DNA of 63,899 nt, filler included. It is 13 parts of 13 records of this genome, joined end to end, with 100 filler letters (N's around TTAATTAATTAA, not from the genome) between each part and the next. Parts side by side here need not be neighbours in the genome. Positions count along the whole stretch, not along the records: positions 12,169 to 15,738 come from SRR15195285_1604; 12 more parts are not named here. One strand, 5' to 3'. The notes beneath the pieces were generated by a model. That model did no database searches. It saw only the letters and a program-made list of their open reading frames with translations, and had not been told where the DNA came from. Both the position numbers and the translations under genes were made by a program. This document shows, one piece after another, positions 3,780 to 30,586 of this stretch (its first letter is position 1; each line of letters begins with the position of its first letter).

Positions 3780-6700
3780 AGCGAAGAGTCGCACAGCACT
3801 AGCCCGGCGAACATGCTGAATGGCTGGGCCGTTGATGGATGCCATTGGTAGCACTCGGCTGCTTTTCACAACCGATGCCTGCGTCTTTGATTGCTCTGGC
3901 ACGACCAGATCGCCTGGCCAGAGCTCAGTGGGTTCAGTGGCAGTCAGATTAGCCCACACATCTGATAGAAAGTTCTTTGCTTCCACCGAAAACGTGTACA
4001 TGAAGTTCTGTTGCAGATCAGCGGGCCCCAAAACTGGACGAGCACCGGTCAGCAACGACCTGACATGTGCAGCCGTGGCACCGATCGTGGCATCCAGCTG
4101 GTTGCACTCGCCGACTGTAGACCGGCAACTGTCGCTCAACGTCAACTCCGGCCCCACCACATATATAGAAGACAGATATGACAAGCTACTCGCAAATGCC
4201 TCACACACCTCACCATTAGCGCATCCATATGCTAATCCAATAATGGGAATCTGCTTTATCAGCTCTACTGTGGCAGCGCAATCTTCTTCAGCGCCATCTA
4301 GGTAACCGCAGAACCCGCAACTCTCGTCGCACATGTGCTGGAAGATGCAGGTAGGGCAGAAAAAGGTCTCACAATCATTAACAACGTCGTCTCCAATTTG
4401 CAAGTTGCCCGCCAGCGCCTCTGCACATGTCGCACTCGCGGTATACGACATCAGGAGATCCTGATCTAGGCAAGTCGATGAGTCCAAGCTGAACCCGTTG
4501 TCCACACATCGGTAGATCACCGATCCAGATTCGTCCAACATAGGCGTCACATCGATGTCCCATATGAAGCTCAAGTCCCGGCCTCCGCTGTGAAATGAGT
4601 TTCCTGCATTGATTGTCACGGAATCGCAGTGCCCAACAACAGCTGGCACGTCTAGCACTGCCACAGCCTTCTCGGCGTTTTCAGCCTTCTCCAATATAAT
4701 GCTGCCTGATGCCGCGTATGAATTCTCGTTGGTGACTAGAATTGCATCCTCCCGTAGCCGCAAAGAATCGCCAGGCTCAACCATGTTTGGATGAAAATGG
4801 CCCATCACAAGGTCCAAAACCTGATCGTCTCGCCATATGCAGTACGGACCGACACCGTAGCGACCGTCAGCAACCTCGGCTATCATGAACGAACAGCCTC
4901 CAGCGCTCTTCATCCTAGCTTTATTCGTTGAGCGATCAAAGTGCAGACGTATCCGCGAGCCAGCCGAGATGAATGTAGCGTTCATGATCTGCGGTGCAGG
5001 CAAAGGCTTAATGTCCACATGTGTGCGCCGAGCGACCGTCGTGATGTTAAAGAAAGTATCGGACATGTCAACACATACTTCGCAGGTCAACGGGCATAGT
5101 TGCGACAGAATCTTTGTCACAGTGACATCCTCGATCGTCCGTAAACGCAAGGAATCGCAAGGAAAGATGGCGATCGCATCGGCACACGTCGGCACACCAA
5201 AGTACTGCAGAACGTCCGACTCCCCAGAGTTATCACACGCCTGATACAATCGACCAGGATCGGCGTCGATCTCGCAGATAAACGGCATTGTTTTTGAACC
5301 CCAGTTGCCGAGTTCTACACCAACATTGGCTGGGTCAAACGCGACCTGCTGTGTCTTAAGCAACTGGGAAGCTTCATAGAACGAGCCGAGATCATTTGCG
5401 TCATTCAGAAACAGTTGATTAGGCTCTCCTGAGTTTAGAACGATGATATCTGCAGTTCCATCGCCATTGTAGTCCCCCGATATTGCGCCAACGGACCGTT
5501 TTGCATGGCGGGTGATCGGCCTACCAGTCAGCTCCGTAAATGCTCCTGGTATTGTCCTGCTGCCCTTGAAATACTGATTGGGCTGGCCGTAGTTGACCAG
5601 AAAGATGTCCATAGACTGATCATTGTCCCAGTCGAACGTCAATCCACCGTATGTGTTGGTCGCGGTTTGCTCCAACGGGTGCTCAGCAAAATTATCAGCG
5701 TCTGTCATCGTCGCAAATTGATGCACGCCAGTGCACAACCCTGTAAACCAGCACTCGTAGACCAAAGTAGAGTACATTGACGTGTTGAGCAGCGCAATTC
5801 CAGACTGTGACGTCGTCGGTTGCCATGTGATTGTTCCATCTGACGCCTCAACCATGGTCAGCTCACCAACACTACTGAGGTACAACTTGTTGTACACTCC
5901 GTTGATACGCAGCTCGTCTTCAACTCCATCGCCGTTCCAATCTGAAAAAATGTTGCCCGTCACGACTGCACTGCCAGGTAGAGTCTCAGCCATCTTCGAC
6001 TGCACAAACTCGAGGTCCACATGCGTCCCGTCCGTGAACTGCCACACGTTGTCCATCGACGCTGGCTTCACTCGGATGGACGCAGGATCGTCATACGGCA
6101 CCGCGCAATCTGCTGTCGCAGAACCAGAGGTGCCACAGATTGGCAGGCCGCTGCAGTCTCGGTCCAGCCCGGTACAGTCCATTGCATTGCTGTACAGCCC
6201 AGTCATGTACTGACTTGTCAAATCGGATGAATAATGCAGAAGCTGCGTGTACTCCACTTCGGTATTAGGACTTGCCAGATGTCCACCGTAACGATCTAGA
6301 CAGAACAATTCAGCATCCCAGAATGCGCGTCGCTCCTCTGTTCCGAGCAGGTGGTGGTCCACGCCATCGCGCCCCAGCGTCACGTCAACGTCATAAGTGC
6401 CTGCAGGAAGCGTCGGCGCAGAGAAAAACCGAGTACCGGGCTTGGGCGTGTCGTACCCGCGTACGTCCAACTCACAGAACGCTAAGTCTCCATATACCAT
6501 ATTATCGCCAAAGGCAACTCGGATGCTATCAGACACCACGCGCGAAACGAACACGTACCGACCCTCACAGTTACCTGAGTTTGTGGTGACATCGTTGTAA
6601 ATCCGATTCGAGTCCGCGTCTAGTCCCACCTGGTCCTCACTGGTGAACATAAGGCAATAATCGTCACTATCGAACTGTCGAAAGTTACCGTTGTCTGTTA

Positions 6701-9286: not shown

Positions 9287-12004
9287 CTAATCCACCTTCC
9301 ATTCTGCAAGACCATGATACGAACTGCTGCCTTCCTTGTAGACGCCGACCCTCCCGGAGCGAGCCTGTACGGTCACGGAATGCACGTAACCTCCCCGCTC
9401 ACGCTCAGCTCGAAGTGCATCGGCATCAGTTGTGCCAAACCGCGGCATAGATTCATCATTCCACTGCAGCCGCAGAGCTGACGGCGTGTCCTCCGCGAGA
9501 AAGATGCGGAATTCGACACGCTGACCCCTCCGCAGTACACCGGTGGACGGCGCCAGAACCTCGTCGCTGTCATTCATAGTGGCGAAGGTGGTAGGTGTCC
9601 ACGTGGTGTCCCTCATTCTCATCCAGTTGGCCTTGCTCACAGGTCGCTCAAGCATCTGGTCGCCAGGATCCTCCGGCAGATGGCGTTCGACGAAGTGCCG
9701 CGGTGCTGTGCACCACCATTCCTTCGCGAAGCGTCGTGTGAAGCCTCTGGAGCTCGCCCTAGCCAGCGTGTCGGTGGAGGTCTGCCGACTCAGCGTGGCA
9801 CCGGAACCTCCCGATGTGCAGCTGCCTGCAGCCCAGCACACGTCGCAGAGATGCCAACTCTTGCTGCCATCGAAGCTCAGGGCATTCCAGCCGTGGCTGT
9901 CGGGCTCGCGATCATCCTCGCCACCTCGGGCATCTCCACCGATGTACTTGCAGGGCACGCCGACCGCGTCGCACAATGCGCACATAAGCGTCGAGTAACC
10001 GGCACAGACTGCAAGCCCAGTTCGCATCACAGTCTCCGCTGTCTGAGAATCTCCGCGGGGTAGTCCAGTCGAATCCTCCTGACGTAGCCTCTCGACATCA
10101 TAGGCGATGTTGCTGGCGATCCAGCGAAACATCACCCGAGCTACCTTTTCTGCGTCACCTCTGAAGGGCTCAGCTAAATGCTCAGCAAGCTGTTGCACAG
10201 AACGCCAGTGCCTGCCTCCCTTTGCTTGCTGTGCTCTCGAGTCACAGTCATGGTAGTCGCTTGAGCACGGGCTCCGGCTTGGCTGCAGGACAGCGGGAAT
10301 GCACAGGCCCTTGGCAGTCACAACCTCTGTCGTGCCATTCGGAAAGGTCGTCTGCTTCTCTCCGCTAGGCAGCACTGTCTCTTTGCGACCGCCCAAGCGT
10401 GTGGGATACGTCACATCGACGTTGCCGTTTGACCACAGGATCTTGACTCTACCGTCTGGGAACGTGGTCTCTTCATTGGCCGTGTACCATCCATCCTTCC
10501 TGACCGTACCATCATCAGCGAAAACAGTCACTTCCGTGCCGTCCGGGAAGGTTGTGTGCGTTGTCCCATCGACCTGCACCGTCACTTTCTTGCCGTCTGG
10601 ATACTTGATCTGCCTCTGTCCATCATCAAAGACAGTCTCTTCCGTGCCGTCACGGTGGGTGATCTGCCTCTGCCCAGAAGGGAAGATGACTTCCCTGCGT
10701 CCGTCTTGGTATTCACGCACCGTCTGTCCGCCCCTCTGTTGGGACCTCTTCACAACAACATCGCTATGCGCTGCCCCCCCTCTCAGGCTGCGACCGTCTG
10801 CGACTGGTTGCTCCACCTTCGCTTTCAGCTTATAGCTCTGCCACTGCGAATCGTCGGTACGCACTGCACAGCAATTTTTGAAATAGCACATGAGCTCCCC
10901 TTGCTGGCCCGGCTGGCCTCGGTAGGTGAAACCGAGGCAGTTTGGTAGAGCCGAGCACCGCACAAAGGCCTCGGACAGCGTGTACAGGCCGCTTTCTAAG
11001 TCATTGCCAGCGAGCCCTCCGACTCTGTGGAAGACTTCACACAACTTGTAGCGTTGCTCCACCTCCGCTTGCTCAGCAGCGAGTCTCTCATGTTCTACCT
11101 TCTCCGTAGTGAGTGAAGCCTCTTCAGCCTCTTGTTCCGCAGGTTGCGCAGCCTCTGCTTGCTCAGCGGCAAGTGCTTGCGCTTGTGAATGTGCGGTGCC
11201 CAGCAGCGGCTCCGTCAGCTCGCCCGTCCCGACGCAGATAGCCAGCCACCTAGCGAACCAGCTTGGCGCATCAGTCGTTGGGCTACTACTAGCCTCGCCG
11301 CAGCTGCGTGCACCTCCTCGGTTCATATCTGGATCATCCGGCGCTTTCGGTTCCTCGTCCTCGGCGACCGTTCCGAGACCACCGCACTGCCCCCGGCTGC
11401 ATAATGTGGTGCGCCTGCCGCACAGTGGCCGATCTGCGGCCTTTGCTACGACGCGGAATCCGTCCGGGATGGTTTTGGAGTAATGGAAGTTCGGGTGTGA
11501 GCCGGCGCACGTGCCGTCCGGCGGGAGCAGCTCAAAGACCGCGTGCTCTGCGTCGCACTTCTTGCAGAAGCGGGCGTTGGCCACGTCACTCATTGCGATG
11601 ACCTTCAGCTCTGGCTCGTCATCGGATGTGAAAGGGTCCGACGCGCCGCTAAGGTTGAGCATGTCGACGACCGCCAGCTCCTTGTAGCTACGCCACTCGC
11701 CGTTTGAGCGGCCGCCGGTCGCGCTGAAGTCGACACGCACCCTGAGGCCCTCTCGCTTGAGCACGGTCCCTTGCGTGCCGGGCTCTTCGATGAGCTCCAC
11801 CACCAAGCCCACGGAGAAGTCCGACGGTTGGTGCGACTCGACCGGCACCTCCATGATCTTCGTGGCAAGAGCGCCAGGCTGCTCGCCGTGCTGCGCCCAA
11901 TGCGCGGCACACCACCGACCAGCTCGCTTCTTAGCCTCATTCTCATGGTGAGCAACACAGCGCTTCTTGGTTCGTTGCTCGGCGGCTTTTTTCGCGGCGA
12001 GCAC
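9287..12004 (-). CDS. Transglutaminase-like (KY/CYK3/hillarin-type) protein with SH3-like, PAN-like and TCP10/CENPJ-C-like repeat domains; probably 5'-partial
   Basis: FRWIASNIAYD, AVCAGYS (Cys), SHGWNA (His), WHLCDVCWAAG (Asp), and FVERHLPEDPGDQML. Gly-turn repeats EYQDGRREVIFPSGQRQITHRDG...TTFPNG lie at about 10315-10725. Confidence 0.85.
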   Translation of the reverse strand: MLAAKKAAEQRTKKRCVAHHENEAKKRAGRWCAAHWAQHGEQPGALATKIMEVPVESHQPSDFSVGLVVELIEEPGTQGTVLKREGLRVRVDFSATGGRSNGEWRSYKELAVVDMLNLSGASDPFTSDDEPELKVIAMSDVANARFCKKCDAEHAVFELLPPDGTCAGSHPNFHYSKTIPDGFRVVAKAADRPLCGRRTTLCSRGQCGGLGTVAEDEEPKAPDDPDMNRGGARSCGEASSSPTTDAPSWFARWLAICVGTGELTEPLLGTAHSQAQALAAEQAEAAQPAEQEAEEASLTTEKVEHERLAAEQAEVEQRYKLCEVFHRVGGLAGNDLESGLYTLSEAFVRCSALPNCLGFTYRGQPGQQGELMCYFKNCCAVRTDDSQWQSYKLKAKVEQPVADGRSLRGGAAHSDVVVKRSQQRGGQTVREYQDGRREVIFPSGQRQITHRDGTEETVFDDGQRQIKYPDGKKVTVQVDGTTHTTFPDGTEVTVFADDGTVRKDGWYTANEETTFPDGRVKILWSNGNVDVTYPTRLGGRKETVLPSGEKQTTFPNGTTEVVTAKGLCIPAVLQPSRSPCSSDYHDCDSRAQQAKGGRHWRSVQQLAEHLAEPFRGDAEKVARVMFRWIASNIAYDVERLRQEDSTGLPRGDSQTAETVMRTGLAVCAGYSTLMCALCDAVGVPCKYIGGDARGGEDDREPDSHGWNALSFDGSKSWHLCDVCWAAGSCTSGGSGATLSRQTSTDTLARASSRGFTRRFAKEWWCTAPRHFVERHLPEDPGDQMLERPVSKANWMRMRDTTWTPTTFATMNDSDEVLAPSTGVLRRGQRVEFRIFLAEDTPSALRLQWNDESMPRFGTTDADALRAERERGGYVHSVTVQARSGRVGVYKEGSSSYHGLAEWKVD

Positions 12005-12701
12005 AGGCGTCCCTGCTGACCCTCGGAGTCACTGAGCCGAGTCACCGTGTCGCACCGGTGGCCAAAGANNNNNNNNNNNNNNNNNNNNNNNNNNNNNNNN
12101 NNNNNNNNNNNNTTAATTAATTAANNNNNNNNNNNNNNNNNNNNNNNNNNNNNNNNNNNNNNNNNNNNCCGGGTTTAAGAAGGAGGAATGGTTAGTCTAA
12201 GTGGTTCGTTTCGGGCTGGCTATACGCAAGTCGGCCAAACAGGCCCTTCAGGCTGGGCATTGACCGCGTTCCCCGAGCTTCGGGCGGTTGTCGATTGTGT
12301 TCTAGTGCGTAACCATACTGGGAGTGTATTTGGTGCAGGCTCCGATCTGCGCATGTGCCATGCACCGCCCGGCCCTTGGCCAGCCGCTCGATCATGTTGT
12401 TCTCTCTACAAGAGGGCCTGCCTCCTGGCGTGCGGCTCACTCAAGGCTCTCCTTCGCCCCCCGCTGACGCGGCTATCCACTTCGTCAATGGGCATCGCAT
12501 TGGCATCCGTTTCCCTGACGACCTGTACGTGCGGCTGCATTTAGGATGGTTATGTGAAGGCAGTCTCGTAGTTTTATACTATAAAAGCACAGAAATATGA
12601 TGTAAAAGCGTAGGTTTATGGTATACAGATATAAAGATATGAAGACTGTACAGCTGTAGTTTAGTTTTACACTACAAAGAATGTGATAACTAAGCAGATG
12701 C

Positions 12702-15304
12702 TCAAAGCGACCGAGCATCAACTGAGCTCAACTGAGCTTCATGCCAACAAGCGGCGTGGTTGATTAATGGTTGGAAGGCAGTTCCTGCGCCCAGTCTTGC
12801 CATCGTGGCTATGCGATCCTGCCTCTCAAGCAACGCCGCACGACTCGCTGCCAAACCAATTGCAGCCGCATCGGCCACGAGAGCCGGGATGATGCTCGCC
12901 TTGACCGGCTCGTCGTGTGAGAGGCCGGGGCCAACCTGCACCTCTGTCAACCACGGCTGTAGCTCATCATCCACGACGAAGTCGGCGCCAAAGAGCTGGA
13001 ACGTGCCTCGTGTCTCGCCCACGCGGTCGGTGAGCTCACGCACCGTTGCGTTCACAGTCCGTATCAAAATCTGACGAATCGTGTGCTGCAGACGCTCCCA
13101 ACTGTCTGAACCATAGCCACGCTGGATCAAGTCGGCTCGAAGCTGCTCGTGCGTCCATTTTAGTCCAAGACTAGCGCCATGGTTTGCCCGTTGCGTCGCA
13201 TTCAGTGCTACCGATTGTAGCTGCCGCCGAGTGTTAGTAATGTGAATTAGGTCGTTGTCGTACTCATCGCGGCGGTAGGCCTGTATATTCAGCCGCACAG
13301 TGCCCGGATGATAGAGCACCACCAGTGGTTCTAGCGAAGCGACCAGCCAATACGTCCGCAGCTCCGACTTTCTGCCATCAAGTAGCAGCGGCTTGTCGAT
13401 GTAGCGTTGTACAATGTATTCTGACGCGAGACCTTGCTCTATCAAGCGTTCTCTCTCGCCACTCTGAGCTGCCCAACGCGCTGGGTCGGGCAGAATTTGT
13501 GCACCTTCGCCGTTTGAGAGGTCAGTGCGCTTCAGAATCCATGGGCCACATGTACCGTGCCCCCCGCCACTGTTGCTGTTGGTGCGTGCACAGGCGGCAG
13601 TCTCGTTGCGAAACGCGACCCAGGCTGCCTCGTCTGCCACTCGGTAAGTAGTTGGCAGAAACGACTTAGACAGGCCCAGTGGGTCGGTGACCCCACGCTC
13701 CTGGTCGTACCGCTGGATATTCTTCGCAAGTTGGGCCTTGTCAACCAATGGGAGATCCCACGGCAGCATGTTCAGTGCTTGCTGCGGAAGGCGAGGCTCG
13801 TAGGCTCCAAGGTAACAGCGGTTGATCAGCCAGAGCACGTCTGCAACCTCCGGTGCATCGGCGATTGACCAACCAGCCGCTGCCAAAATCATTCGTGCAT
13901 TGCGACCCTGAACGTAGAGCAGTGGTCCAGTCTCCGGCTCTTGCTCCTGCCGCAGGGACCGGGGCGCGGAGTTTGTCGCTGTGGAGAGTTTGATGGCGTA
14001 GAGTGTGAGTTCGGCGTCTGGTGCCATATTTAAGTAGCAGCCTACTGGCTTGAAATGCTTGTGCGGCATGTTAAATCCACCACATGGTGGGTCGGTCATA
14101 TTCAGGCACTGCTGCTTGCACGTCGCCACGTCATCCTGCGTTGCATGGGACCACGAACCGAACCATCACGCAACTTTGAGCCGTGCAATAGTATGTACAG
14201 AGGGAACAGGCCTAGCTACAATGTCTGGAAGGTTCGCACCGAGCTGCATTCGCCCATGGAATCTTGGCCGGAGAAACAATCCTTCCCATGCTCTGCTACC
14301 CACGACGTATTAGTGGGTGCAGGTGGAGTTGGGCCCGCTGGGCAGGCGCAGCCAGGTGGGACTGGGGCGCTACAATTCGGGCAAGCCGTGCCACCTGGGC
14401 AGCGCTCGATGGGCACGGAGTGGGGATCACAATGGATGACTGGGGCTGGCGGCGGCGGTGCTGGCGGTGCTGGCGGTGTTGGGGACGGGCTGCTGTCACA
14501 GTAGGCCTTGAAATTCGCCTCCGTACAGTGCTCGGCCTTCAAAACGACCGAATGCTCACCAGCACACAGCAGACAGTCCCCGGCACCCTTCGTCTTTGCC
14601 TTTGCACAGACGAAATTTAGCGCCTTCTGGCATGACGCCGGGATCCCGGGAGTCGGAGCTGGGCTGGGCCCAGGTGGCGACGGCGGCGGGTGTGGAGCCG
14701 GGGGGGAGGGACTGGGTGGCGCCCGGCCGCAGATCGTTGGTTTGGCAGCGCAGCCCCCATTCTTGGTCTTCAGCTGGGCTTCGCCAGGATGAGAGATGCC
14801 CTCCGTGACGGCCACCTTCCGCCCTTTCTTGAACGCGCAGCAGGGATCGCCAAGCTCAAGGCCGTTGTACTGCCCGTCGCGGTCAGAGTCTTTGCAACAG
14901 TATTTGATGCTCCACTCTGGACCCTGATGGTGGTGGTGATCGTCATCGTCGTCGTCCACTTGGTTTTCCCACACACGCTCGACGTCGTCGGCGTGGCAGC
15001 TCTGGAACTGCGTCACTGCGCGCCGCACTTTCACAGGCGCCACCTGCAGATCCTTGGCGAAGGAGAACAGATCGCCACCAGTGGACCAAGATGCATACCA
15101 TGTGTCGCCGCCACCGTAGTCATGGCCGAACTGGTTGAGGTGCGCACCGCCCCGATCGTCACTGTGTCCGATCGCACCATCTGAGCTCTGACCTGGCAGC
15201 GAGTTGAAATATGGGTTGTGGCCGTTCGGGAGCTGGTCCAGGTACTGCGGATGGGCTCCCACGCCAGGGAGAAGCAGTGCCACCGCCCCCAACGTCCACC
15301 ACAT
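12702..15304 (-). CDS. Signal peptide-temptin-like-6Cys module-PAN-like-TTL/TTLL ATP-grasp ligase fusion; join(15304..14240,14135..12702), about 832 aa
   Basis: Signal MWWTLGAVALLLPGVGA; temptin motifs HPQYLDQLPNG, GH...GG..LNQFG.DY and CCKDSDRDGQYNGLELGDPCC...SHPG. A phase-0 intron 14239-14136 (GTGCGA...CGCAG) rebuilds one PAN-like domain. TTL motifs: WILKR...NGEG, IVQRYIDKPLLLDGRKSELRTY, HITN, FQLFGADFVVDDELQPWLTEVQ.GP. Confidence 0.8.
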
Positions 15305-15838
15305 CGCAACCGTGGCACCGTTGTCCAACACGGCCTCAGCCAAGGGAAGGTGTCACGCTCCACATCGCAGCGCTTGGAGTGTCGCCCTGACAGCTGCTGC
15401 TGACGCATTCGGGTCCCTCGCCGGCACTTCCGCGGCAGCGTTCCGCGCACAGGGAGAAGGTTTTCATTTCCCGCGCGCGCGACGATCCCATCATGCAACG
15501 GACGTCGCGGGGCCCGAAATTTCCAACGCGGGCATGAAGATGTGATTCTTACTAGCTAGTAGGTCGGGGTGCATGCATTTTTGCATGCAGACATACTACT
15601 ATTCGAATATACTTTTAGAATACCGCGCGGTACGGTACCGGTACTATCAATCGGATCCCAGACTGTTACGTTCACCCCGACGCCACTTGCGCCCCCGCGG
15701 CCGGCCGGCGGGCGATTTTTTCAGTCAGGCACCCGGGANNNNNNNNNNNNNNNNNNNNNNNNNNNNNNNNNNNNNNNNNNNNTTAATTAATTAANNNNNN
15801 NNNNNNNNNNNNNNNNNNNNNNNNNNNNNNNNNNNNNN

Positions 15839-18800
15839 CCATCAAGTTTCCCCTTCACACGAGCAGTTGATTGCATGGCCATCTTTCTCACAAGCAACAG
15901 GACGAATACCATCAAGCCGCCAACGACAAACAACAGGAGCAGAACTGAACTTGCTGGAAGCGCCGCAGTACCGTCTGCGCCTGCGCCCGTCTCGTTGAGC
16001 AGCTCAGCTGTGATCAGTAAAACCAAAAGTGCGTGCGCCAGCGCGTACATCTTCGACTCCGCGTCTCGCCGAAACGGCCTTACCAGCTCCATCAAGCAGG
16101 CAATCAATAGCATGCAGATCAGAAGCGCAAATCTCCACCTGTATGGCTCTGCCGCTCCCTGACCTCCAAGATACACAACGTTGATGAGAAATTTCTTTGC
16201 GAACTCAACGCAGAACCACCAATACGGACCATCAACCTCGCGCGTTACGAACTCTTCCATCTCCTTCTCCTTGGCCTTCTCCTCCTCAGTTTTCTTGGTG
16301 TAGAGTTGCTGCCGCCTTGTGTAGTCCACCACATACACGTGCGCGTAGAGTGCAGCGTACGGGTCTGTCAGCACGACTTTTGGATCCCACAGGTTCGTGC
16401 GCTGTCGACGAAGATACCACAAGTAAAAGCACGGCAGACCAATCCCAAAAAAGCTCAGCACAAGCAATGCTGCCACGATCGCAGCATAGTGAATTCCAGT
16501 CCAGCACACAGCTCCCAGATCGACGTCTAGTCGCTGTTCTTCAGCGAATTCACGCAATGGTCGGCAACCGAACATGGCCAGAGACCATCGTGTCATCGGT
16601 GCATAGAGGCATATTGACAGCAAGACGAATGAACGTTTCAGCTCGTAGCGATGCAACCGCACCTTCTGGTGGTTCCAGTGCCGCAAGGTTTGGTCAAAAA
16701 ACCGCCCCTGGGACATTCTGTAGACGAGATCAACCACAGTGTACTGCCAACCATTGTGAACAGCTCGATTCCACGCCCAGTAGCCGAAGAGAATTCCGAT
16801 CACGTAGCATACTGGCAGGGCCGAAACCTCTGCGAAAAAGCGTGAATAAACTGACATCGATGCAAAACAACGCGTACGATCAGTATCCAGGTTGAGGTTG
16901 GAGAGGTTCGCAATTGAGGTCAGGATGCCGTAGTCCTGCGAGATCAGTGAGAATGTCTGCAAGAAGAAGACCGCAACCTGTACTGTGTTTTGTGAGCTTG
17001 ATTTGGACTGAAGCACAATGATCACGCCTGAGATGAGGTAAACCATCACTAGGAAAAACGCCGAGCCGACATTGGTGTCTGGACATGGGACACATATCCC
17101 TGTCGATAGCTTGGAGTAACCTTCATCACAGGTTGCACACAGTGGCCCGCTATGTCCAACTGTGCAGCAACCTGAATTGCGATCGCAGACCCCACGGTCC
17201 TCGTCAGTCGCGCCCTCGCATGTACCTACTGCACATGTCATGAGCTGTGGCTCCAGCGCATCAAGTGTTGTATTGTCCAGCCAGTAGCCTTTCCGAGGAA
17301 GAATCTCAGCTTTCGTCACTGGTCCGCCGTGGCAAACGCCACGTGGTGGACAGAGCATGCAGTTTCGATCTTCAACGTACGAGAAGAAGTTCTGCCTGCA
17401 TATGCAGCCAGTACGCTGCTGATTTACTGTCTCCCCTGCCGTTCCACAGGCGATGCACTGGTAACCATTAACAGAATATGTTCCGTCTGCACATAGTGAA
17501 CATCCAGTGGCACCAGTCGGGGCATTGGGTTGGAAGCCAGGGGCACACGTTCCGCATCGTCCATCCTCAGTCAGAGAATCTGGATTGTCCATGTATTTGC
17601 CGTACGGGCAAGCTGCACACTCGCTGACGTCCGCTGTGGGTGCATAACCAGGTTCACAGAGATTGCAGTAGCCGTTCTCTCCCGCCCAGCCCGGCAAGCA
17701 CGGGACGCAAATGGTGCGTTCATTGTTCGGCTGCTTTCCTGTTGGGCACGTGATACAGATGCCATCGGAAGATACTCCGTTTGGAGGACACATCTCACAA
17801 GCAGTACGGGCGGGATTGGGCTGCTGTCCAGCACCACATGGGTTACATGTCCCACCGACCCCCGCAGCGTTGGGGGCACACGGCTGGCACTCAGTCTGAA
17901 TCTCGTTTGGTTCATGTCCACTCGGACACGCCGTACACTTCGGATCCTTGAGGCCGTCAACGTAACATCCCATCCATTCGGCTCCGTAGTCGGTCGCGGG
18001 GCCTCCGCTAGGGCGTAAGTCAAAGACCGCATTTCGCCACGCACATGCGAATAGCTCCGGTGGGTCCTCTGAGCGGATGCCAAATGGTGGAAACATCGAT
18101 GCTGCTGGAGTGCCAAGCAACTCGGACATACCTGCGCGTTCTGCATTTGTTAGATCGTTCCGAAGCTGCCCGCGCGCGCAGTCGTGCAGGCCGTCGCCGT
18201 CCACGTCGCAAACACCACGCCCGTCTGAAGTGTCAGCGGTTGCCAAGCCAAAGTCACCGACATGATTGTCACAGTAGCACAGATTGGTCCACTGTAGACC
18301 CATATAGTCATAGTTGAGAGAACTGCAGAATTCTGCGCATTCAGCTGTCGCAGTGTCCATGGTAAGGTCCATTCCATCGCCGCCCATTCCAGTCTCTCCC
18401 AGTGCTTTGACGTGTCCTTGAAAGTCCCGCGCGGCGAGCACGGCCTGATTGGCCGGGCAGGCTTGACAGAAGGACCGATCATGGCTTGACTCCGTCCCAA
18501 TTTCACAAGGCAAACATTCTCTGCCGTCTGGGCTATGGTAACTGTCCGGGCATACGACGCATTCCTGCGCCCGAAAACGTCCAACCGGTTCGAAACCGAG
18601 CTGGCATGGTACGCACTCACGGCCAAGTGCCGAATGAGTGCCTGCTGGGCACGGCACGCATGCAGTTTGTCCATCGTTGGGCTCAAATCCAGCGGGGCAA
18701 GGAGTACAAAAACGGCCTGGCTGGCTTTGCTCGCCGAACGGACATTTGATGCATACGATGGCGGCAGCATACGCATTCGGCTGCTGCCCCGCAAGGCACT

Positions 18801-21682
18801 GGTGGCACTTTGCACCCTCGCCCAAGAGAGAGTTGGGGACTGTCTCGGTAGCTAGCTGGTACGCTGCGCCGCGAAAGCCATCCTCTCCTTCTAGTGATAG
18901 CTGCGCGGCGAGGTCAAAATCGAAACCCGTTGCCAACTCTTGTGCAATACCAGCTGGTACATGTGGATATGCCAAGGGATCCTCCGCAATATCGGTTACG
19001 CGATTTTCAAAGTCAGCGCTGTAGTATCCGTACGGACAGTCGTAACAGTACACCATTCTGTCGTCACGCTCTTTACCATCTGGGCAAGCGATGCAGATGT
19101 TGCCTGTAGAGCTGATCTCACCGGGTGCACATTCAATACAGTCTGTCTGTTCTTCGTTTGGTTCCAAGCCTGGCGGGCAGCTCTGGCACAAGCCAGCGGC
19201 GGAATACGTCTGTTCTGGGCACGGTACGCACCCTGTTTGTATCGGGTTTGGACCAAATCCTGGAGGACATGCGTTGCAGAAAATTCCATCGGTGGAAACG
19301 AAGTACGCAGGACAAGCTGTACATGAGATCGAGTAGTCAATGAAGTTGCAGCCGTAGCCTGTGTGGAACCCATGGGCCGCATCGCATGGATGAGTGCGAC
19401 AACCGTCCGGACCAGGACCCGTGATCCATGCCGCCTTGTAAATGTCGAATGGTGTCATGCTTGTATCCCACATAGTCCACGGCAATCCAAGTCGCTCCAG
19501 ATGCAGCGCCTCACCGTATTCAGCTTGATTATCTTTGAACGTGCACCCATACACCTTAGTGTCAACACGATAGGCGCGTATCGCTCCCCCTTCACTGTGG
19601 TGTATGACGATGTTATATTCGATCGAGTCGTCTATTGCTTGGTTGCCAAGAAATGACGACCCACGAAGGTCCATAAAGCCAAAATTGATGTCGATAACTC
19701 CACCGTGCTTGGCAATGTTTCTGTCAAACACGGAATCTAGCACGCGAATTGAAGTATCCCAGCCGTCGATCGCGCCACCTGTATCCTCTGCAATGTTGTG
19801 TAAGAACAAAGAATTCTCGATGTCCATTTCGCCTCTTCTGACGCTGATTGCGCCACCACCGAGTGATGCAATCACTTCGCCTTCGACCGCCGCAATAACA
19901 TCAGGGTCTTCGTGCCTCTGAATATTGTTGATGAACTTGCAATCTACCAAAGATATTGTTGCACCATTCCCTTGTATCGCTCCTCCACCGCGCGAAGTCC
20001 CGTCGTTCATATTGTCTTCAAAATGGCACCGCTCCATAGTCACAATGGCACCTTCCAAGTACATCGCGCCGCCACGGTTTTCAACGAATCTGCATTCCTC
20101 CATCACCAGCGAGGCGGCCTCGCCGCGCCCCTCGCCGCTTCCTGACATTGCCCATATCGCACCGCCGTGAATAGTGGAGAAGCCAGAGTTGAAAGAACTC
20201 TTAATAGCACGCAGCTGCCCAGCACGCATATAGATTGCACCGCCTCGAGGAGCAAAGTTTCCTAGAAAATGTACGTGTTCTAGGATGAGCTCTCCAGCGT
20301 GGTTGTATATCGCGCCGCCTTCGTAGCGGTGAATGTCTTGCGGGCCTGCACTACCTGGTGGCATCCCCTGTTCGTCTACATTTATGTAGCGCATGATCAG
20401 CACACCACCTTCAAGAAACATCCGCGCATTGTGCTCAGTAGGGTTACTACGCGTCGGTAGACCTTGCACAATCACCTGGCTGCCCCCGACAATGAGATCC
20501 CGGCCAAAGGTGCCCATGTAATATATGCTGCATACTACTGGGGGATACGGCTGGAGGTCGTAGGTTTCCACAAGGCTAGTGCAAGTGTAGTAGCACGAGG
20601 AGTCTTCGAGCGTGGCTTCTGGATTGAAATTGTTGGCGCGGCTGTCTGTGCATCCGTACGTGTGGACAAGTTCGCACGTGATATTGGACATCAGAGTGCC
20701 GTCGGCACAGTACGGCTGCTGACCAACTGGATCATAAATCTCGGCGCATGTCAAGTTGCAGGTTTCCCCGGCAGCGAGGAAACCATCGTCTGAGCAATTA
20801 CCCCAGAATCCGTACTGCGGCGGTCGAACATTTCCACAATTGAAGAGCTGCGCATGAGTGTACTCGTACACGCACTGCGCGCCGTCATCGTCAACGGCGA
20901 CATCGAATACTGACAACCCTGCCATCATGCCTTCAAAATGCCAGTCGCGCTCACTATCCAGCTTTCCCGCAAGGAATATGTTAGTTGTGAGGTCGAAACC
21001 TGCAAGAGGCATCGATAAATTTCTCGGCGAGAACAGGGTGCCGACGCGCGGCTCCGCTGCGTTGAATGCCAATGCATCATCGCCCGTTTTCAGTGCTTCG
21101 AAGCTAATCTCTGTCTGGTTTGCCGGGTTTCCGTTGATGTAGAGAGCCGCCTGCTGCGGCGTCACCGACAAACCGACGTGGACCCATTGATCACTGAGAC
21201 CTGCGACAATCGAGTCAGAGAAGAAATCGTAGCCAGCCGTTATCTGATCGTCGTCCTCCAAAGAAACCCTTATTGTGGGCCGCTGTTCTCCGAGATCTAT
21301 GTCCCATGTGCACATGAAAAGAATGCTCACCTCGACGTTTGGATCCCCCGGGATTTCGGCCGGCAAGGCATGGTGGTACAGGTACTGTGGACGATCAGGG
21401 CATGGTTCATTCGTTATCCAAAACCCAACCGTAAACTTTCCGTCTGTTGCATACGGAAAATTCTGCACAATCCCATAGGATCCAGGTTGCTCGAACCGCA
21501 CTCCGAAGGGTTTTTCCATGGTTGGGCCCCCATGTAGGTAAACCCTGTACTGGTTGTTAGAAGTGTCCTCTGGTTCTTCCTTGAGCAGGACAAGGAGCTG
21601 TGGATTAGGGCATCCTGGCATAACATCAGGCTCCGGCTCTGGAACCGGCTCAGGCTCGGGCTCGGGCTCAGGCTCAGGCTCA
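15839..21682 (-). CDS. Large receptor-like membrane protein, partial at both ends: LamG-like, GCTD repeat, GGA(I)/FxxN beta-helix, many GCC2/GCC3 (ephrin-receptor-like) Cys repeats, WSC domain, multi-pass TM C-terminus
   Basis: WVHVGLSV...LYING...FEGMMAGLSVFD (LamG); YGCTDSRANNFNPEATLEDSSC; repeated FxxN..GGAI; more than 15 CxxCP.G repeats; GHSGPLCATCDEGY followed by about 7 hydrophobic segments. Confidence 0.85.
21627..21682 (-). repeat. (GAGCCN)n hexamer repeat encoding a (Glu-Pro)n linker; contig breaks here
   Basis: The minus strand reads EPEPEPEPEPEPVPEPEP in frame with the large ORF. Confidence 0.9.
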
Positions 21683-22509
21683 NNNNNNNNNNNNNNNNNN
21701 NNNNNNNNNNNNNNNNNNNNNNNNNNTTAATTAATTAANNNNNNNNNNNNNNNNNNNNNNNNNNNNNNNNNNNNNNNNNNNNGTGAGCCAAGCAGCGCCG
21801 TATAGGGGGTTGCTCAGTGTGCACGCACTGGTACTCTAGTTCTAGCAAGGTTCTGCACGTGTAGTTCGGCGTGTGGCGTATGGGCGAGACCAGTCTCCCA
21901 CACCCTGCTCCCGATGCAGTCTATGACACGTGGGAGCAGGGGATTTTCATTGGCAAGCTTTTCCTATTGTGGTGCTTCGTCAGAGTTCTAAGTACTCCTC
22001 GCCTGCGTATTCTGCTGCATCAAGGCTGACGACGAGATCGCAGGGACGCACATCCACAGTCTGATGTCTCGAGCCATCTGGAAACGAGGGCAGAGAGCAA
22101 GGCCTGCGGCCAAACCCTTGGGCAAGATCGACTGACTGACCGAGGGTGAGCGCGACGGAGGATGATGAGCAACTGCGGCGGCAGCGGCACAGTTCCACCA
22201 CCATTTGCACCACGACTCGTGGCGCTCAATCGTACTCAGCGCTAGCTGTCTGCAACAGGGGCTGCCACAAGTGTGTTGGCAGGCGCCCCGGCGTCACGCG
22301 GCAACATAGTCCGATACAGTAGTGCTCGATATGCTGGGGAAGAGAAGGGGACACGAGAAACATCGATCTGGAAGCAATGAGCTCGGATCAGTTCAAAACA
22401 TCCAAAATGAAATGCCACATGGTGTGCAGTCATGACGCCCTCGTAGGCCGCCGCATTATCTCTCACTCAATTTTCGAAAATGATATTGTGATTACTGTTT
22501 ACGTCATGC

Positions 22510-30216: not shown

Positions 30217-30586
30217 GCAACAATGCATCGAGTGTACATTGTACAGTCCTGTACCTTTTTCGTCGAGAGTGCAATCAGTCCATGGGAACGAGCAGCACCG
30301 CCCCATTTGTTTTCACGGTGGTTACCCAGCCCGTGGGTGAGGCCCCGCCACGCCGCACACGCGACATCACATTGCCTCTCGCACTCAGAGCGCTCTCCAG
30401 CACCTCTACCTGCTCGCCTTCGCGTANNNNNNNNNNNNNNNNNNNNNNNNNNNNNNNNNNNNNNNNNNNNTTAATTAATTAANNNNNNNNNNNNNNNNNN
30501 NNNNNNNNNNNNNNNNNNNNNNNNNNCGCTCTAATCGGTGCTTTGACAGTGGTGTGCACATGGTGCCCAGCTGCACAGCCGCGCCG

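Follow-up and report, generated by a model that had tools for sequence, protein, structure and literature searches.

A spliced and transcribed marine gene joins a temptin domain to a tubulin-tyrosine-ligase-like ATP-grasp domain predicted to enter the secretory pathway

Enzymes of the tubulin tyrosine ligase (TTL) and TTL-like (TTLL) family are cytosolic writers of tubulin modifications, with a few other cytosolic or nuclear substrates. What would such a ligase do in a protein that begins like a secreted one? This question is raised by positions 12,702 to 15,304 (minus strand) of a window of 63,899 nucleotides, the whole stretch of DNA that was analysed, which joins 13 parts of 13 records and takes positions 12,169 to 15,738 from the record SRR15195285_1604. 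The locus carries two open reading frames (ORFs), which a sequence-only reading had joined into one gene encoding a temptin domain and a TTLL enzyme. Here, both ORFs are confirmed to belong to one spliced, expressed gene, and the enzyme part has the fold and the conserved catalytic residues of the TTL family. We think it fairly probable, though well short of certain, that the product is a soluble secretory-pathway protein of 832 amino acids with an active TTL-type amidoligase that acts on luminal or surface proteins.

The first step is to ask whether there is one gene or two. Exon 1 runs on the minus strand from the ATG at 15304 to 14240 and encodes residues 1-355; the equivalent Met is also the start in the relatives. 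The intron (14239..14136, 104 nucleotides, GT..AG, GTGCGA...CGCAG) is followed by exon 2 (14135..12705, residues 356-832) and the stop codon at 12704-12702. The intron sits between codons, and its excision links TCG (Ser355) to GAT (Asp356) with the frame kept, giving 832 amino acids from two ORFs of 355 and 477 amino acids; a retained intron would lead to an in-frame stop 7 codons on. Among 24 public runs listed with the stretch, 19 are recorded as RNA, all of them marine or aquatic metatranscriptomes (13 studies in all), and four runs were aligned to 12650-15400 at a likeness of at least 90%. In run X1, a 161-nucleotide contig aligns to 14021-14134 and then to 14239-14285 with one mismatch, omitting 104 bases that end in CT..AC on the plus strand and thus in GT..AG in the sense of the gene. 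The junction is covered in this one contig from one of the four runs, the other three having no coverage there. This contig, together with relatives that read through without interruption, bears out the phase-0 intron of the sequence-only reading, which had suggested looking for just such spliced reads and whose ORF coordinates and reading frames were also exact.

The relatives give a second line of evidence. The block around the junction, DCF.GQDNMGTC..DDVA.CKAQC, is unbroken in P0004, P0012 and P0015, and in P0002, which is 84% identical, the gene call starts within the intron at the equivalent position. An artefact of assembly could in principle have put a secreted temptin-like gene and a separate TTL-like gene on one contig, and the ORF track alone does show two ORFs, with splice evidence from a single contig. 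An artefact would, however, hardly produce exact GT..AG ends with the frame kept. The two domains are found in uninterrupted ORFs in P0005, P0009 (contig L081), P0041 and L082, and no Met common to the relatives was seen in exon 2 upstream of the TTL domain when the ORFs were compared. Two separate genes are therefore barely credible.

RNA contigs cover parts of both exons. For exon 2 they extend over 12832-13822 (runs X1, X5 and X6, 98-100% identity), and for exon 1 over 14722-15139 (X3) and 15078-15249 (X1), at 99-100% identity; this partial coverage comes from three studies. Since contigs of 98-100% identity map to each of them, both exons are transcribed in nature. A spike in depth at 14445-14487 was rejected as a signal of expression, as it consists of foreign contigs with loose ends, drawn to a low-complexity Pro-rich stretch. 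At the other end of the gene, the ORF continues for 15 residues (12705-12749, minus strand) past ...LINHAA, the last residues of every relative, even of P0001 with its 97% identity; the RNA contigs do not cover 12705-12749. These extra residues could reflect a recent change of the stop codon, or a truncated relative.

The second step concerns the enzyme. A TTL-family ATP-grasp domain takes up residues 422-825 of the full-length protein (67-470 of exon 2; 12726..13937, minus strand). Pfam TTL (PF03133) matches exon 2 with an E value of 4.8e-39 and 134.8 bits, against a cutoff of 20.1, over profile positions 8-279 of 292. In an AlphaFold2 model of exon 2 made with 25 relatives (mean predicted local distance difference test score, pLDDT, 83.3), the confident part spans residues 67-470 and comes after 66 disordered residues. 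The best PDB matches that Foldseek finds for this model are TTLL6 (E 8e-21), TTLL11 and TTL, and in VIA-align the model superposes on TTLL6 with a Z of 35.4 (root-mean-square deviation 2.8 Å over 347 residues) and on TTL with a Z of 29.9, at sequence identities to the solved TTL-family structures of 18-23%. The domain thus has the three-part ATP-grasp fold of the TTL, TTLL6, TTLL7 and TTLL11 structures, and it is complete, as had been read from the sequence. The protein ends soon after this fold, with no microtubule-binding extension past the core.

The active site is shared as well: the ATP-binding lysines, the hinge, the K..R motif, HxTN, the Mg-binding Asp and the catalytic Glu are all those of TTL and the TTLLs. 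In the numbering of exon 2, the residues K133 and K202 (the two lysines of the N-domain), Q243 (the hinge), K256, R260, H298, N301, D385, E398 and Q400 are invariant in 25 of 25 aligned relatives, and for this reason we regard the catalytic set as intact. Two motifs differ from those of canonical enzymes. KSELR (K611-R615; 13356..13370, minus strand) stands where TTL and the TTLLs have KFDLR, as seen in HMMER alignments to TTLL7 and TTLL6, in which GADF also aligns with GFDI. TEVQ (T752-Q755; 12936..12947, minus strand) aligns with LLEVN of TTLL6 and with LLQIN of the TTLL7 crystal construct, keeping the catalytic, Mg-binding Glu and replacing the Asn by Gln; these two residues presumably correspond to E331 and N333 of TTL. 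In TTL, the TTLLs and ATP-grasp enzymes generally, it is Asn that follows the catalytic Glu. A motif scan shows that Gln as second Mg ligand is the rule across the subfamily, in place of the E-x-N of TTL and the TTLLs. The motifs EVQ and SELR, pointed out earlier, are thus signatures of a whole subfamily rather than signs of decay in this copy. A loss of the ATP- and Mg-binding residues, which the earlier reading had named as grounds for giving up the enzyme, was not found in the alignments of the relatives and of TTLL6 and TTLL7, the change of Asn to Gln being the single systematic departure.

That change does raise the question of whether the domain catalyses anything. It might instead be a pseudoenzyme, a binding module for nucleotides or acidic ligands within a secreted adhesive or signalling protein, as the altered Mg ligand and the scarcity of ATP outside cells would suggest. 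There is also a parallel in the animal protein CPED1, discussed below, for which Anantharaman and Aravind (2010, PMC2824669) report inactive ATP-grasp versions in some animals. The whole catalytic set, however, is invariant across the 25 relatives, bacteria-like ones included, the Gln is fixed throughout the subfamily rather than being a sporadic loss, and the strands of the active site are under strong constraint, all of which makes a dead enzyme quite improbable. If the domain is active, its chemistry is presumably that of TTL and the TTLLs, an acyl-phosphate attacked by an amino acid, because the fold and the residues are the same.

The third step is to ask where such an enzyme would work. 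A signal peptide is predicted at residues 1-17 (MWWTLGAVALLLPGVGA; 15254..15304, minus strand) by a heuristic that considers the hydrophobic core and the small residues at -3 and -1. The leader MWWTLGAVALLLPGVGA is followed by HPQYLDQLPNGHN, with cleavage predicted before His18. The same pattern is found in the relatives, where unconserved and hydrophobic N-termini are followed by a conserved block HP(Q/E)YL..PNGHN. In all four complete N-termini of temptin-TTL relatives (P0005, P0009, P0041 and L082) the hydrophobic leader stops just before the conserved His, and L077 also has a hydrophobic leader before this His within the extent of its contig; the leader sequences of these five differ from one another. 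The predicted cleavage would leave the conserved His18 (15251-15253, minus strand; HP.YL) as the mature N-terminus. Some copper-binding proteins hold their metal through an N-terminal His, and a copper site at His18 is, by this analogy, pure speculation.

The leader is followed by a temptin domain (residues 18-192; 14729..15253, minus strand), identified by Pfam and by the ESM Atlas. Temptin_C (PF24784) matches exon 1 with an E value of 5.4e-21 and 75.3 bits (cutoff 27), the best stretch being residues 124-174, and in the ESM Atlas the clusters closest to the first 200 residues are without exception Temptin_C (score 0.95). A search for a deeper temptin alignment gave only three close relatives with the temptin part. 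Temptin itself is a protein of the water-borne pheromone complex of Aplysia, with homologues in molluscs and oomycetes. The window protein resembles these in its above-threshold match and its disulfide-rich composition, and would also do so in its signal peptide if the heuristic prediction is right; the nearest Atlas clusters are mollusc and oomycete temptins. Known temptins are, in contrast, small and stand-alone (136-199 amino acids in the Atlas clusters), whereas here the domain has an insert and heads an enzyme of 832 amino acids. This insert is a tract of six Asp and four His (residues 117-126; 14927..14956, minus strand) just before a D-x-D-x-DG..NG.ELGDPCC motif. It is kept, with variable length, in P0005, P0009, P0041, P0044, L077 and L082, which are all the other temptin-TTL fusions with an N-terminal part available, and to judge from its residues it looks like a divalent-metal site.

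Further features of the spliced product bear on its routing. Its 29 Cys are grouped into modules and two of its linkers are rich in Ser and Pro, both of which fit an oxidising compartment; there are also six N-x-S/T sequons. A hydropathy scan of the whole 832 amino acids found no transmembrane segment; past residue 17 the sole hydrophobic stretch belongs to the TTL fold, where it forms an amphipathic helix (KD19 at most 1.72, with an Asp and an Arg inside), which agrees with the earlier statement that no membrane span lies between signal and enzyme. The C-terminus has no KDEL-type end. In the TTL domain itself, the pair C537 and C551 (13652-13696, minus strand), which likely forms a disulfide that would again fit an oxidising compartment, encloses a variable loop leading into the ATP-binding WILK strand. 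This pair is kept in the temptin-clade relatives compared (P0004, P0005, P0007, P0009 and P0044) and is absent from the bacteria-like P0021 and from P0033, a member of the signal-peptide group. Because of the leader pattern in the relatives, the membership of temptin in a secreted family, and the modular Cys and Ser/Pro linkers, routing to the secretory pathway is likely, as predicted by sequence heuristics. The enzyme probably works within this pathway or outside the cell, since signal peptide, temptin and Cys-rich modules all precede it.

A cytosolic protein, whose hydrophobic N-terminus is no signal peptide and which modifies tubulin or another cytosolic protein, would be the conventional expectation for this family. 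An axonemal dynein in the window implies flagella, the leader is weak by simple hydropathy, and three leaderless coiled-coil proteins fall inside the same clade in one of the trees described below. Temptin is, however, a secreted family, 29 modular Cys and Ser/Pro linkers are unfit for the cytosol, and a variable leader followed by conserved sequence is found in every complete relative. Both trees moreover separate the domain from the canonical Asn-type TTLLs, and it has no microtubule-binding extension. Altogether a cytosolic location seems very improbable.

The fourth step is to see whether the architecture stands alone. An exhaustive HMMER search of 1.84 billion representative proteins found 6280 TTL-family proteins at E up to 1e-3, only 57 of them at E up to 1e-30. 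At least seven further environmental sequences combine Temptin_C with TTL (P0005, P0006, P0009, P0041, P0044, L082 and L077). The fusion in P0006 rests on precomputed domains; in P0009 it is a single open frame of 666 codons on a contig of 2508 nucleotides (L081), in L082 a single ORF of 687 amino acids on a GC-rich genomic contig, and in L077 it spans two frames of one contig of 2079 nucleotides. The author of the sequence-only reading knew of no TTL-like domain joined to temptin. As regards the literature this stands, no temptin-ligase fusion having been found in a search judged by titles and abstract openings, with subscription journals mostly outside it, and the temptin literature that this search reached being almost all on animals, mainly molluscs. 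As regards sequences, the fusion clearly recurs.

In a motif and hydropathy scan over 178 proteins, 136 had a near-complete domain. These comprise 32 canonical Asn-type proteins without an N-terminal hydrophobic segment and one with such a segment, 53 Gln-type proteins without it (mostly of about 380-400 amino acids), 24 Gln-type proteins with it, 11 members of the window's clade, and 15 with an unclear motif. A FastTree phylogeny of these 136 rows gives the window's clade a support of 91, and joins it at 99 to a sister group of six short proteins (P0033, P0037, P0038, P0048, P0050 and P0053), in each of which the TTL domain comes straight after a signal peptide or anchor. In this tree 49 bacteria-like rows form a clade with support 96, and the Asn-type rows lie across a weak branch (support 80). 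IQ-TREE, applied to 62 chosen rows, recovers a 17-row clade (SH-aLRT 99) that unites the temptin forms and the six short forms and also includes the three leaderless coiled-coil proteins; it adjoins the bacteria-like rows (81) and lies apart from the Asn-type outgroup. Since the rows were picked by similarity to the query, the trees place the branch relative to those rows only, rather than in the TTL family as a whole, and carry no direction of transfer. Within this frame the TTLL phylogeny that the earlier reading had proposed as a check groups the temptin forms with the signal-peptide short forms, apart from canonical TTLLs in both trees.

The nearest groups in both trees are thus the Gln-type short forms and the bacteria-like forms. 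In the ligase domain the six short forms and P0021 share with the window protein the signatures KSE(L/I)R and TE(V/I)Q.GPGLS, with 34-39% identity over the whole domain. Unlike the window protein, the short and bacteria-like forms have no temptin or Cys-rich modules, and the bacteria-like ones have no leader. Compared with TTL and the TTLLs, the window protein differs in its predicted luminal or extracellular location, as opposed to cytosolic, in lacking a microtubule-binding extension, in having KSELR for KFDLR and Gln for the Mg-ligand Asn, and in falling into a separate clade with signal-peptide and bacteria-like proteins.

Could the bacteria-like relatives point to a substrate? The form P0021, of about 390 amino acids, comes from a Chthoniobacter metagenome-assembled genome, where its immediate downstream neighbours are a Wzx-type flippase, a CheR-type methyltransferase and a GT4 glycosyltransferase. 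This genome is the sole carrier in its phylum as sampled, since 400 of 401 genomes had no match at E up to 1e-20. A metagenome scan kept 80 loci, and ORFs were called in 32 of them, most being gene-dense with a coding fraction of about 0.8-0.9. After removal of 8 near-duplicates and some trimming of the list, Pfam was run on 138 neighbour ORFs from 23 loci. The recurrences were Glyoxalase in 4 loci and DUF6691 in 3 (related loci), followed by Aminotran_5, Spermine_synth, SurE, Peptidase_S8, Lactamase_B_2, enzymes dependent on thiamine pyrophosphate (TPP) and YidC/YidD in 2 loci each. With neighbours as heterogeneous as this, the bacterial context gives no pointer to a substrate.

The neighbours of P0021 do bring up the idea that the same secreted enzyme uses an amino acid or an amine to amidate carboxylates of glycans, such as uronic acids in surface or extracellular polysaccharides, or of a small molecule, and not of a protein. 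Weak matches to a 'sugar-transfer associated ATP-grasp' family, below its curated cutoff, in P0032 (2e-5), P0041 (0.002) and L082 (0.004) speak in the same direction, as does a locus (L016) within a phosphonate-type cluster, and the 2010 CPED1 paper (PMC2824669) had raised peptide-glycan copolymers. A polysaccharide context is, however, found in only 1 of 24 loci (L001 and the 23 others) and no partner recurs, while the weak ATPgrasp_ST matches may reflect merely the shared ATP-grasp fold. The glycan reading was dropped as the main explanation because no neighbour family occurs in more than 4 loci, and we consider it unlikely. To our knowledge, every TTL-family enzyme that has been assayed acts on proteins, and those characterised all join amino acids to carboxylates of proteins. 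From the fold, the conservation of residues and the behaviour of the family, we infer that proteins are the more likely acceptors.

Taken as a secreted protein ligase, the product could work as follows. The N-terminal signal peptide would bring it into the endoplasmic reticulum (ER), where the temptin domain, the Cys-rich modules and the Pro-rich linkers would fold. The C-terminal TTL ATP-grasp domain would be an active amidoligase dependent on ATP and Mg, which would turn a carboxylate of the substrate into an acyl-phosphate and then join to it the amino group of an amino acid, as TTL and the TTLLs do on tubulin. It would act on luminal cargo of the ER and Golgi, or at the cell surface, the likeliest targets being acidic side chains or C-termini of secreted and surface proteins. 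The temptin domain and the Cys-rich modules may serve in targeting, metal binding or substrate binding.

A number of points weigh against this proposal. The second Mg ligand is a Gln in place of the usual Asn of ATP-grasp enzymes, in a subfamily that is known from sequence alone. The leader has no basic n-region and is of modest hydrophobicity (KD19 1.09). The splice evidence is a single short contig at a depth of about 4. The bacteria-like relatives have no recurrent neighbour partner, no Pfam family being found in more than 4 of 23 loci. Finally, extracellular ATP is scarce, so a secreted ligase must work in the lumen or use pericellular ATP.

The closest known concept is CPED1 (C7orf58). 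According to Anantharaman and Aravind (2010, PMC2824669), this animal-specific protein is predicted to be secreted and combines a TTL-like ATP-grasp domain with cadherin-like and PC-esterase domains; the same authors proposed, as a prediction only, that it ligates amino acids onto surface proteins or makes peptide-glycan copolymers. The sequence-only reading had named this precedent correctly. The window protein shares with CPED1 a predicted secretion and a TTL-like ATP-grasp domain. Unlike CPED1, its partners are temptin and Cys-rich modules and it is a protist gene, the two being set apart here by the description of CPED1 rather than by its sequence. Pfam, run at E up to 1, detects neither a PC-esterase nor a cadherin domain in the two exons. 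Beyond this 2010 prediction no relevant work on secreted, diatom cell-wall or prokaryotic TTL-like enzymes was found in the literature, with subscription journals mostly outside the search. The search gave no experimental test of the CPED1 prediction either, and one later paper that mentions both CPED1 and ATP-grasp is a human genetics study. CPED1 is the nearest concept; the nearest sequences belong to uncharacterised proteins, and there appears to be no study of the wider Gln-type secretory branch.

What these observations mean depends in part on whether the enzymes are active. In either case the idea of a secreted TTL is not an animal oddity: many environmental eukaryotic sequences have an intact ligase preceded by a signal peptide or anchor, at least eight of them, the window included, carry it fused to temptin, and the gene is transcribed in the marine environment. 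Active enzymes would imply a new class of extracellular modification, in which amino acids branch off secreted proteins or glycans, and the question would arise where luminal ATP is spent; anchor-bearing relatives such as P0035, labelled as a diatom in EukProt, would be tractable entry points. Inactive enzymes would instead illustrate how an ATP-grasp fold can be turned into a binding module. It is possible, although doubtful, that there is a protist branch of TTL-like ligases marking secreted or surface proteins or glycans, by modifications resembling glutamylation, glycylation or tyrosination or by amino-acid amides, as a luminal counterpart of the tubulin code. In this tentative scheme the temptin form would find its targets through its metal-binding head and Cys-rich modules, and the ancestry would be shared with a sporadic bacterial group by gene transfer in either direction.

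Between temptin and ligase the protein is made up of linkers and Cys-rich units. A Pro/Ser-rich linker (residues 195-224; 14633..14722, this and the following features being on the minus strand) leads to a 6-Cys module with the spacing C-x7-C-x10-C-x2-C-x12-C-x8-C (residues 225-269; 14498..14632). This module aligns with P0003, P0005, P0006, P0009 and P0012 and has no Pfam match. A second, low-complexity Pro-rich linker (residues 270-290; 14435..14497) is followed by another Cys-rich stretch with six Cys (residues 292-321; 14342..14431). The domain order that had been read from the sequence, namely a hydrophobic N-terminus, temptin, Pro-rich linkers, the 6-Cys module, more Cys-rich sequence and a complete TTL ATP-grasp domain, is the one found.

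The last of these units is a block that was called PAN-like, of which the first half (residues 333-355; 14240..14308) ends exon 1 and the second half (residues 356-405; 13986..14135) begins exon 2. It is a conserved 6-Cys unit, contiguous across the junction in P0004, P0012, P0015 and P0120. Its identity as PAN is another matter. In a Pfam scan of 9 relatives at E up to 10, PAN_1 or PAN_2 matched two, all below threshold (P0106 at E 0.053 and P0012 at E 0.2, with 12-14 bits against a cutoff of 21); these are two of the four scanned relatives that have the block uninterrupted or its second half. A profile built from four sequences of the block had no match in the PDB (E up to 10), and an AlphaFold2 model of it from P0120 is unusable (pLDDT 37.7 on 7 aligned rows). 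The PAN assignment is therefore not confirmed. The order of the middle modules varies among relatives, the PAN-like block of P0005 coming ahead of its 6-Cys module. The near-identical P0006 lacks this block together with a Pro-rich linker; a paralogue, alternative splicing or a collapse of the proline repeats during assembly could account for the difference.

The window is eukaryotic, with an axonemal dynein heavy chain and long, intron-poor genes. The dynein gene (34416-42503, minus strand) is one open frame of 2696 codons, and the best named match of its motor is EukProt SAG31 (84% identity), followed by green algae and land plants (72-74%). A partial TTL relative is labelled SAG25. According to a preprint, SAG25 and SAG31 are picozoan single-cell genomes from Schön et al. 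(2021). With these two matches the host is probably a picozoan or a relative, a marine flagellate.

Some side observations concern the surroundings of the relatives and of the gene itself. In L013:88-831 a bacteria-like relative adjoins a SET-domain protein, and in L016:1320-7026 a relative with a longer ORF (4004-5866) is found together with a phosphoenolpyruvate mutase, a TPP decarboxylase and a class-V aminotransferase. Beside the temptin-TTL gene of L082, positions 54-1355 encode an alpha-L-arabinofuranosidase B (5.7e-118) that looks secreted and has a Pro-rich linker and a tail with a weak likeness to PAN_4. In the window, the upstream neighbour (15787-21726, minus strand) is a giant ORF of about 1950 amino acids that contains a (Glu-Pro)n tract, a right-handed beta-helix and numerous Cys-rich repeats and has a multi-pass part at its C-terminus, and a further gene (30479-34417, plus strand) has EP repeats that match Trypan_PARP (5e-6). 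Acidic surface tracts of this kind might be targets for a secreted, glutamate-directed ligase, a link that is conjectural. In the downstream neighbour (9290-12028, minus strand), CPAP/Tcp10 G-box repeats (Pfam 9.5e-22) are unusually paired with a transglutaminase-like core (7.3e-13).

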